Source: a virus (taxonomy: Duplodnaviria; Heunggongvirae; Uroviricota; Caudoviricetes). From it: DNA of 64,000 nt. Position numbers: made by a program. Positions within the stretch are counted from its first letter, which is position 1. Each line of letters starts with the position of its first letter. The stretch lies in the IMG/VR virus record IMGVR_UViG_2721755660_000001, one strand, 5' to 3'. Below are positions 15,001-18,000 of this stretch, one piece after another.

Positions 15001-18000
15001 TTCTCCAATGATTTTCAAAGAAGAGTAGATGGATTGGCCTGAAGGAGATGGATTACTGGAATATGAATTGTTGCCGCCTTCTAAGATGGAAGCTATTAAA
15101 TTTAGTTGGTGTGACGCTTCAATCACATCGCTGTAAACTGGAGTAAGGCCTATTTTTGAGAAAAAATTATAGAATGGGATTGCTTTCGATTTTGCAATTA
15201 AAAGACCTGATGACGCCTTTAGCTCATGTATTAATTCGCTATTTGGCTTAAAATTCATTATTTTACTTTGCTCGCGAAGTAAGAGTGACGAAATTCTTCC
15301 CAGATGCTCCTTGAACGAGATATACGTTTCCAATGCGCATTTGGTTATTATTTGACCTATGACGTAGACGGTCACACCAGTGATAATTGTAGTAAAAACA
15401 GTAAGCCACATAATCAGTTAACGCCTTTAGCTAAAATGCAATTATGTATCCTATAGCTCCAGTGATTTGTCCAGATAAATTGGGTGGTCATGGCACATCA
15501 TCGCCGCGACTATAAGAATACTTTGCTCATACCGTTCGCGCCGCCATGCTTCAGGGTGCCACGCAAGATAGCAACTCTCCGGTGATTCCGGATGGTTGGG
15601 TGATGGTTCAGAAGGAGCCAACGCCAGATATGCTTAATGCCGCCTGGGTGTCACATGGCATTTACCATGCATCTGCTTATCGTACGATGCTCGCAGCAGC
15701 TCCGCAGCAGGTGAAGTGACGAACAAGTTGACGAGAGTTACCATAGATATAAATCAAGGCCCCTAGGGGCCTTTTATTCTATGATAAACGGACTTTGTTT
15801 GAGAGTGACGCTATGAAGCCCAAGAAGCTAAATGCTGAGCAGCAATACAAATTAGACCTTGAGTTGGTCAAGAAGAAACCTGCGAACCGTACAGAGGCAA
15901 AAGCCCATTTGGCGGCGCAGTTACGGATCAGCAAGTACAAGGCGCAGAACTCATCAAAAATCCGCGCAGGCAGTTTCAGGGGGCGGAAGAAGGTGCATTT
16001 CAGTAAGGCCGAAGACGAGGCCAGGGCAGCACTAAATAAAGCCAATGCCATTAGATTTTCCGAAGGGGAGGTCGAATCCGTCGATACGGATCGAATCTCA
16101 GAAAGTAACAAACGCTGGCGCGGGAGAACTGCTGACTAATGTCTGACTGGAACATTGCAGCAAAGCCGCAGGAAGATCGCGATAAGGTTAACGTTGACCT
16201 GGCTGCCTCCGGAGTGGCGTACAAAGAGCGCCTGAATATGCCGGTTATCGCTGAGGTGGTGATGCGCGAGCAGCCAGAGCATTTGCGTGATTACTTCCTT
16301 GAGCGCCTGAAGTTTTATCGCGAGAAGTCGATAACTTTACCGAAAGTTAGCGATCCGTTTTACCTGAAACAGGAGGAAGGGAAGTGATTATTGATGAACA
16401 TTTTAAGGATAGAGTCTCGAGTCATCTATCTCAGAAAATAATCGAAGACGCATTAAATGGAAGGGGATTTTTCGCCCGAAATGTGTTGGAGTCCATTCGG
16501 CTTCTTGAGGGAATGAAGGTTGCCCCATCAACTTTAGCAATGCGTCATCAAGAGCGTGAATTAAAGGGTGCGTTGGCCGGATTTCATCATATACATGTTT
16601 CAGAGGATAATTTCACTCGAGCTTTCAATGCGTACAGGCAAAAAGGAGAAGCGCCTGAGAAAAATCCATCCGAGCCGGCTTTACAAGGCCGGGGCAATCG
16701 CAATGCTATTCAGATGTTTTTGGAGCAAAATGGAGTTAGTGCTAAAGATGCTTCGTTTGAAGAACTTATCATAAGATTCCAGGATCTTATTGAACAGATG
16801 GGAGAAGAAAATGCAAAAGAGCAAATTTCTCGTATTGCTGCTGAGCTATCTTGGAAACCGTTTAAGGGTAATGATGTAATTTCTGGAGACTGGCTAGTCT
16901 ATTGGGTGAGACAGGACGGTGTAAGATTTTATATCGATAGTTTTGAACACATCCCCGCAACCGATACAAAACTGCAGAATTCCACCGCAAATTCATTACA
17001 CGCCATTCTTCAAAGCATGGATACCGCCGTTTGATTTTCAAGAATCATCCAGCCATAATCATGTCATCGGAGCCTGAACAACTCCGGTGACTTCTGCGCA
17101 TTTAAGGGGACTTAAATGCGACCACAATCTGAACTCTTCACCTTGTCACAGATGCAGAAATGCACCTGCGATTTTCTACATTCTGCGGTTTCCAATAAGG
17201 AGGCCGTATGACTCTGCCAGTTGACGGAATCAAACTCCATCGAGGCAACTTCGCGGCCATCGGCCAGCAGATTCAGCCATTGCTGGATGCCGGGCAGTAC
17301 TTCCGCCTGCAGGTTAAGCCGTGGCGCGAGAAGCGCAGCCTGTCGCAGAACGCGCTCAGCCACATGTGGTACACGGAAATCAGCGATTACCTGATTAACT
17401 CCGGACGCACCGACGCGACTCCTGAGTGGGTTAAGCGCAACCTCAAAAAGACATATCTCGGCTGCGAAGAGGTGACCTACACCGACTTCATCACCGGCGA
17501 AAAAAACACTACATGGGAACCGCGACATACCGCCAATCTCGATACCGGGGAAATGCATATTTTCCTGGTAAAGGTTGAAATGTGGTGCGCTCAGTTCGGC
17601 CTTGCCCTGACTATCCCGAACGGCTGCGAGTACCAGCAGCTGCGCGATAAGCAGGAGGCCTGATGTCTACTCCACTTTCCCGCGTTATCAGTAACGAAAT
17701 CTTCCGCGTTCCGGCGCGCCGCCAGCGCAAGCCCGCGGTTAAGCCGTCCGAAATCCCGACCATGAAGGACTACACCGCCTGCCTGGTGGATCAGAAATGG
17801 CTGCGTCTCGCGGCGAGGAGAGCGCATGGCTAAGTTACCGCGCCGCAAGTGCGCCCATAAAGCCTGTCGCCAGTGGTTCCACCCGGTACGCGACGGGCAG
17901 GTAGTTTGCTCATTCGAGTGCGCCAGCGCTATCGGCAAAGAACAGACCGCAAAATCCCGTGAAGCCGCTCAGCAGAAGGAAGCGCAGCGTCAGCGCACCG

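Follow-up and report, generated by a model that had tools for sequence, protein, structure and literature searches.

The segment analysed here lies at positions 15756-17034 of a 64,000-nucleotide (nt) stretch of DNA (the window), taken from the Caudoviricetes record IMGVR_UViG_2721755660_000001, and consists of three translationally coupled open reading frames (ORFs) on the plus strand behind a terminator-like hairpin. This segment is probably an accessory stretch of mosaic make-up, located in the rightward delayed-early operon of a lambda-like prophage, and does not amount to a single system. Its content is that of an ordinary nin-type accessory region, with a known gene, the one for the theta subunit of DNA polymerase III (Pol III), and two separately inherited orphan genes. 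ORF1 (15813-16139, ATG start, stop codon at 16137-16139) encodes 108 amino acids (aa), or 114 if translation begins at an upstream TTG at 15795, followed by ORF2 (16139-16387, ATG start, 82 aa) and ORF3 (16384-17034, GTG start, 216 aa). The stop and start codons overlap as TAATG between ORF1 and ORF2 (16137-16141) and as GTGA between ORF2 and ORF3 (16384-16387), with the Shine-Dalgarno-like motifs GAGAG, GGGAGA and AGGAGG preceding the three starts, respectively. Pairwise ratios of nonsynonymous to synonymous substitution rates (dN/dS) against homologous loci are 0.06-0.24 for the three ORFs where dS is unsaturated, which for ORF3 covers the two closest loci only, indicating that all three are genuine protein-coding genes under purifying selection. 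An earlier note on this DNA had described three coupled ORFs at these positions and with these overlaps, preceded by an intrinsic terminator and beginning with a protein rich in lysine and arginine, and the sequence bears out each of these points (27 of the 108 residues of ORF1 are lysine or arginine, with an isoelectric point of 10.3). Its statement that none of the three carries a recognizable domain holds for ORF1 and ORF3 in Pfam, PHROG, PADLOC, NCBIfam and the Protein Data Bank (PDB), but not for ORF2, which scores above the Pfam and NCBIfam cut-offs as a theta/HOT protein.

To judge from its sequence, ORF2 is the phage's own version of the theta subunit (HolE), of the type represented by HOT of phage P1. 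It matches the Pfam family PF06440 (DNA_pol3_theta) with an expectation value (E) of 3.5e-34 and 116.8 bits against a cut-off of 34.6, the NCBIfam model NF008207 with 106.5 bits against a cut-off of 97, and phrog_1105 ('DNA polymerase III theta subunit') with an E of 3.4e-39. Moreover, the alignment to the P1 HOT structures (PDB codes: 1se7 and 2ido; E 9.7e-35) is gap-free over residues 1-79, tblastn gives ORF2 and P1 hot an identity of 73%, and E. coli theta (PDB code: 1du2; E 1.1e-20) aligns with residues 5-70. The alignment is colinear over the full length, and 82 aa falls within the range of theta and HOT proteins, about 76-83 aa. Also, RefSeq names the identical gene 'DNA polymerase III subunit theta', and gene 60 of phage HK639, which is 94% identical to ORF2, carries the same annotation. 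Theta homologues are found in 37 deposited records of temperate enterobacterial phages, at various genome positions, and theta is present in <0.1% of phage records.

The cellular role of the theta subunit of Pol III has long been unclear. Theta attaches to the proofreading subunit epsilon and makes it more stable, HOT is able to do likewise, and P1 relies on the host Pol III (PMC2528190); besides, a structure has been determined for the epsilon186-HOT complex (PMC3664792). ORF2 likewise occurs in a temperate enterobacterial phage relying on host Pol III, and it would be expected to serve replication support or host takeover, not defence. Unlike P1 hot, which has its own late promoter and upfO and lxr as neighbours, ORF2 is located in a nin-type region, that of a lambdoid prophage, is translationally coupled to a basic upstream ORF, and is known here from sequence.

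The single three-gene cassette proposed in the earlier note does not stand up to a comparison of related loci, where each of the genes also occurs apart from the others. Searched as DNA, the whole 1.5-kb segment with the trio occurs in 5 of 5,426 complete E. coli genomes; strains with the identical region include E. coli GB089, O22:H8 strain 154 and M10. Among 80 IMG/VR loci encoding a relative of ORF1, an intact theta gene starts exactly 3 nt past the last sense codon of ORF1 in 49, a broken theta follows in 4, and no theta is found in 27, with ORF3 coming after theta in only 4 of the 80. The place is otherwise taken by a 179-aa gene after theta (3 loci), by the 73-aa gene of HK639 after theta (2 loci), or by a 181-aa membrane protein directly after ORF1, with theta missing (12 loci); in several loci, theta is followed at once by the ninB-position gene. 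The genes found in place of ORF3 are related neither to it nor to each other, and searches of Pfam and PADLOC returned no match for them. For example, E. coli L6-21 carries ORF1, theta and then the unrelated 179-aa gene, strains Santai and STEC1590 carry ORF1 followed by the unrelated 181-aa membrane protein and no theta, and HK639 and CobraSix have theta and the segment upstream of ninB without ORF1 or ORF3. That related prophages hold different, mutually unrelated genes between the terminator and the ninB-position gene agrees with the variable cargo site that had been suggested for this place. Two of the alternative genes have features of their own. The 179-aa protein at L003 4742-5281, in the position of ORF3, begins VINIIVDSNAW, reminiscent of a PIN-like N terminus, and belongs to phrog_26388, with no match in Pfam; the 181-aa protein at L004 4071-4616 has hydrophobic segments at both ends.

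The closest parallel in order is the gene 60 region of HK639, in which a terminator, a small basic ORF, theta, one cargo gene, a conserved segment, the ninB-position gene and ninE follow one another as they do here. In this case, however, the basic ORF is a 60-aa version with only the C-terminal 32 residues in common with ORF1, and the cargo is an unrelated 73-aa acidic protein instead of ORF3. The accessory genes in the nin regions of lambda and P22, between the replication genes and Q, share the same position, the conserved flanks and the unrelated alternative genes between them. ORF1 and ORF3 are none of the named nin genes, since tblastn of both proteins against 50,697 deposited phage genomes gave no match.

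A similar picture is obtained from ORF3, whose relatives were grouped into 16 lineages. Upstream of ORF3, theta is intact in 4 of these, is a pseudogene disrupted by a frameshift, a deletion or an early stop codon while ORF3 stays intact in 5, and is missing from the remaining 7. Most of the lineages have ORF3 without ORF1, which is also present only in the close lambdoid relatives. The decay of theta beside an intact ORF3 argues that ORF3 is independent of theta. Moreover, a separate origin of ORF3 fits its low G+C content, 42% (0.36 at third codon positions, GC3) vs 51% (GC3 about 0.6) for ORF1 and theta. The decayed thetas before intact ORF3 relatives are located at L015 4756-5004, at about 4750-4992 in L021, L020 and L019, and at about 3760-4008 in L010; they are disrupted by a stop codon in place of W4 or of a Tyr, by a frameshift or by loss of the N-terminal part, or are heavily decayed, and they keep the 3' end with the ribosome-binding site and overlapping start of ORF3. 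Upstream of the decayed theta and ORF3, L021 (3105-4454) and L020 (3394-4569) encode a large protein that combines a membrane region at the N terminus with a coiled coil and has, at its C terminus, an array of short repeats rich in Ser, Leu and Ala (…LADSSWSALSSR… / …GLAPLSG…).

On its left, the variable slot is bounded by the intrinsic-terminator-like hairpin found by a terminator scan at 15756-15785 on the plus strand, formed by a hairpin at 15756-15773 and a T-rich tail. It reads AAGGCCCC-TAGG-GGGGCCTT, followed by TTTTATTC, giving a G+C-rich stem of 7 bp and a loop of 4 nt. The RNA fold has an energy of -19.3 kcal/mol (z = -3.2), and 1 of 200 shuffled sequences folds as well; the region shows no enrichment of terminator-like sites as a class (5 found vs 3.5 expected). 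However, a terminator is annotated at the equivalent place in HK639. The right edge is formed by the interval 17030-17190, which is matched by many lambdoid phages in megablast. This lambdoid-conserved segment opens with a promoter-like site, TTGATT-17-CATAAT, detected by the scan at 17031-17059 on the plus strand, overlapping the stop codon of ORF3, at the same position as a putative -35/-10 annotated in phage 82 (X92588). Recombination probably uses the conserved flanks as joints, and the interval is variable as a result. A consensus scan, which weak promoters could escape, detected no sigma-70-like promoter in front of ORF3 or in the interval from the terminator to ORF1. Since a promoter-like site is absent between the terminator and ORF1, the genes look like read-through delayed-early genes and not like a self-expressed prophage defence moron. 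ORF3 has the low G+C content of a moron but is translationally coupled to the upstream gene.

Based on these observations, antiterminated read-through of the hairpin at 15756-15785 during lytic growth would lead to transcription of ORF1 to ORF3, and the three would be translated as a coupled string. The theta protein of ORF2 would then join the host Pol III core by binding the N-terminal exonuclease domain of epsilon (DnaQ), stabilising the proofreading subunit of the core borrowed by the phage and supporting phage DNA replication. In this slot, ORF1 is the gene that usually comes first after the terminator, most often placed before theta, and it would encode a basic accessory protein. Finally, ORF3 would be a separately acquired cargo gene acting alone, with an ancestral link to theta but no dependence on it; the best guess for its product is a histidine-dependent hydrolase, possibly with a RelE/YafQ-type ribonuclease core and a helical insert, made in lytic growth.

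Three points count against a mosaic of separately inherited genes with these roles. First, the binding of ORF2 to the N-terminal domain of epsilon and its stabilisation are predicted from the 73% identity to HOT. Second, it is composition and weak similarity that suggest the roles given to ORF1 and ORF3. Third, some functional coupling between ORF1 and theta or between theta and ORF3 is possible, given that both adjacencies are far above chance because theta is rare in phages, although shared ancestry would account for both. As leads, the two orphan genes and the way they are linked to theta are of modest interest, and they give rise to the alternatives considered below.

The alternative that survives best, although unlikely, is that ORF1 and theta form a functional two-gene module in which ORF1, via its conserved C-terminal 32 residues, partners or modulates the theta-epsilon complex, with ORF3 as unrelated cargo. 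Theta lies exactly 3 nt after the last sense codon of ORF1 at 53 of the 80 loci when broken copies are counted, and the pairing persists at 61% ORF1 identity and again at 53%, in the latter case in a different early-region context (RecT/Lar/helix-turn-helix). Moreover, the C terminus of ORF1 is invariant (...RWRGRTAD), also where ORF1 and theta do not overlap, and its last 32 residues recur in a 60-aa basic protein (phrog_16632) that is otherwise unlike ORF1 and is joined by a TAATG overlap to the theta gene downstream of it, both in HK639 and in E. coli MLI104K1. However, theta is missing from 27 of the 80 loci, including all the most distant relatives of ORF1 (43-45% identity), where other genes follow and the same C terminus (...NKRWRG[RK]TAD) is kept. 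Also, theta occurs with no ORF1-like gene in P1, Proteus Pm34, Pectobacterium ZF40, Serratia BZS1 and Klebsiella RothD, and the loci are related by descent, so that the counts overstate the independent support. In HK639 (NC_016158), the 60-aa basic ORF (MSNEEMTPAEKYK...RKKRGRTAD) is unannotated and lies at about 4836-5018, between the annotated terminator and theta. In lambdoid phages, theta usually comes after a conserved small basic protein, unannotated in HK639, and this order could offer a handle on the purpose of phage theta copies.

ORF1 itself corresponds to phrog_14068, of unknown function, with 42 cluster relatives that come almost all from Enterobacteriaceae, and its dN/dS is 0.06-0.12. 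Its AlphaFold2 model has a predicted local distance difference test (pLDDT) score of 70, with a confident N-terminal helical hairpin; searched with Foldseek against BFVD, this model retrieved nothing at E below 1. No match to ORF1 was found in Pfam or PADLOC, and PDB sequence and profile searches with ORF1 and ORF3 returned only chance matches to antibodies and designed helical repeats. The ORF1 product, which is small, very basic and largely helical, would be a lytic-cycle accessory protein that is possibly nucleic-acid-binding and possibly works with theta. A candidate clamp-binding motif, QYKLDL at residues 11-16, was rejected, the pattern being too loose and placed in a confidently helical segment.

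A second alternative, which we regard as improbable, pairs theta with ORF3, either in a toxin-antitoxin-like manner, the theta-like protein neutralising a RelE/YafQ-like nuclease, or with ORF3 acting on the epsilon-theta module of Pol III. In 9 of the 16 lineages, ORF3 directly follows theta or its remnant and overlaps it by 4 nt, and this pairing is kept at 34-37% ORF3 identity in elements where the pair precedes a methyltransferase, excisionase (xis) and integrase and is not placed in a nin region. The succession of a small acidic and a larger protein with overlapping stop and start codons is also the order seen for antitoxin and toxin. On the other hand, theta is a pseudogene in these methyltransferase-xis-integrase elements, as it is beside intact ORF3 in 5 lineages overall, it is absent in 7 more, and 49 of the 53 theta genes found after ORF1 come without ORF3. 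A further point for the toxin-like version is the weak similarity of ORF3 to YafQ/RelE described below, which stays under every curated cut-off.

ORF3 has 24 close cluster relatives, and an exhaustive profile search of 1.84 billion protein representatives recovered only 10 cluster representatives, none of them with a known domain. It matched nothing above threshold in Pfam, PHROG, PADLOC, NCBIfam or the PDB, and a PHROG search with two divergent relatives was equally negative. Two motifs, LKGxLxG[FY]xHxH and GDW[LI].Y...Y....H, flank a variable, poorly conserved helical segment at about residues 77-165, and the residues invariant across the family are R10, S12, L15, L41, E42, K61, G62, L64, H69, H71, N82, G168, W170, Y183 and H189. 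The AlphaFold model, with a pLDDT of 51, is too poor for a fold search. The invariant His, Lys and Trp residues and the purifying selection make it plausible to propose ORF3 as a single-gene phage effector. A cupin HxH motif was considered and rejected because its spacing does not fit. Likewise, P0073 and P0074 had been taken as C-terminal-only relatives in support of a two-domain argument, which was rejected because both are frameshifted full-length genes.

The RelE/YafQ type II toxins, which are ribosome-dependent mRNA endonucleases, are the only family that recurs among the weak matches of ORF3. The native protein (E 0.1-0.17) matches TIGR02385 with an E of 0.11 and TIGR00053 with an E of 0.17, at 12.5-13 bits against curated cut-offs of 27.9-87; PF15738 appears with an E of 0.15 in 2 of 18 family members, and a PDB entry named 'toxin' (PDB code: 4nrn) aligns to the ORF3 profile with an E of 1.8. 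Removal of the helical insert, at a splice point picked with the RelE hypothesis already in mind, improves the PF15738 match to an E of 0.001-0.03 in 3 of 5 constructs, with alignments crossing the junction, and the scores of 15-20 bits are still below the curated cut-offs of PF15738, TIGR00053 and TIGR02385. In a comparison with hhalign, the ORF3 profile and the YafQ alignment give a P of 0.009 and a probability of 4.5%, below the cut-offs, and a score as good was reached by 1 of 120 column shuffles. The likeness extends to particular residues, with LKGxLxG[FY]xHxHV and DW[LI].Y...RF of ORF3 aligning with LQGSWKGYRDAHV and DWILIY...RF of YafQ, so that the family-invariant H71 and the D169-W170 pair of ORF3 fall on the H63 and D67-W68 that are invariant in the YafQ family, and the predicted order of secondary-structure elements is compatible, as far as a low-confidence model allows. 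However, the match requires a helical insertion of ~90 residues in the middle of the core, together with an extra N-terminal helix. C-terminal fragments of ORF3 alone matched nothing, the PDB search with the insert-removed profile found no toxin, and a cognate antitoxin gene does not adjoin ORF3, the upstream gene being theta, often a pseudogene or missing. With scores that rise after removal of the insert and never become significant, the RelE/YafQ resemblance is a weak lead for ORF3, and membership in that family would be unlikely.

A more elaborate proposal would make ORF3 a new, very rare and antitoxin-less family of RelE/YafQ-type nucleases, its core split by a helical regulatory insert of ~90 residues, born downstream of phage theta and restrained by a theta-fold protein, either that of the phage or the host HolE. 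Restraint by the host HolE would leave the phage copy of theta able to decay beside an intact ORF3, and a theta-restrained nuclease, if true, would tie the theta subunit of Pol III to phage-host conflict. We consider this proposal highly speculative, with a very slim chance of being correct.

That the trio acts together as a novel defence, anti-defence or host-takeover system, as the earlier note had hypothesised, is very improbable: the tight coupling of the three ORFs, their place in a variable prophage slot and the lack of any known domain in two of them speak for it, but the combination is seldom seen (in 5 of 5,426 genomes and at 4 of 80 ORF1 loci), each gene is found without the others, ORF3 is unlike the other two in composition, the middle gene has a known and different role, PADLOC has no match, and the scan detected no promoter of its own. 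The comparison with defence catalogues that the earlier note had proposed was made with PADLOC-DB v2 for ORF1, ORF2, ORF3 and five divergent ORF3 relatives, and no model matched significantly, the best being Cas10_Id with an E of 0.015 and 11.6 bits, judged to be chance. The search for remote homology and fold, proposed in the same place, was productive for ORF2 as theta/HOT and gave no significant match for the ORF1 model in BFVD or for the ORF3 profiles. A literature search on the accessions, the PHROG identifiers and a ren-ninB defence hotspot found nothing specific. Reading the segment as a mosaic accessory stretch would therefore correct the record, in that a region flagged as an unknown cassette holds a textbook phage accessory gene (theta/HOT) and no coherent new system.

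The trio is preceded in the operon by the replication O gene, a DnaB-type helicase gene (12860-14233) and ren (14223-14537), and followed by the gene at the ninB position (17208-17663), NinE and NinG. The location between the helicase region and ninB given in the earlier note is thus right as to position but not as to name, because the gene at 17208-17663 encodes a YbcN-family protein of the phage 82 orf151 type according to the RefSeq annotation, and a search of it with Pfam NinB (PF05772) gave no match. A true Pfam NinB occupies this position in some related loci instead of the YbcN type. Outside the segment, translation of the plus strand at 17116-17211 gives a small orf33-like ORF of 31 aa, ATGA-coupled to the ybcN-type gene; orf33 is annotated in phage 82, and a 33-aa hypothetical protein occurs in other E. 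coli prophages. This ORF is missing from the RefSeq annotation of the identical prophage and contains a terminator-like hairpin at 17153-17170. A scan of 14200-17800 with Rfam gave no match.

Additional genes are found between ren and the terminator. An 82-aa protein with a DUF3850/ASCH domain (14574-14822; phrog_986, 'RNA-binding protein') adds to the accessory genes of this variable region, and it lies between ren and a gene on the minus strand (14974-15411), opposite to the surrounding operon and within an island of 35% G+C. The latter encodes a 145-aa protein with an N-terminal transmembrane helix, assigned to phrog_7512 (function unknown) and with no match in Pfam or PADLOC, which has a moron-like look; RefSeq lists only a shorter version of this gene, of 285 nt. 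Finally, just 5' of the terminator, a 57-aa ORF at 15546-15719 resembles the C-terminal end of larger phage proteins (phrog_12449 and phrog_60), and it is probably a gene remnant because a full DUF551 gene occupies the same place in E. coli L6-21.

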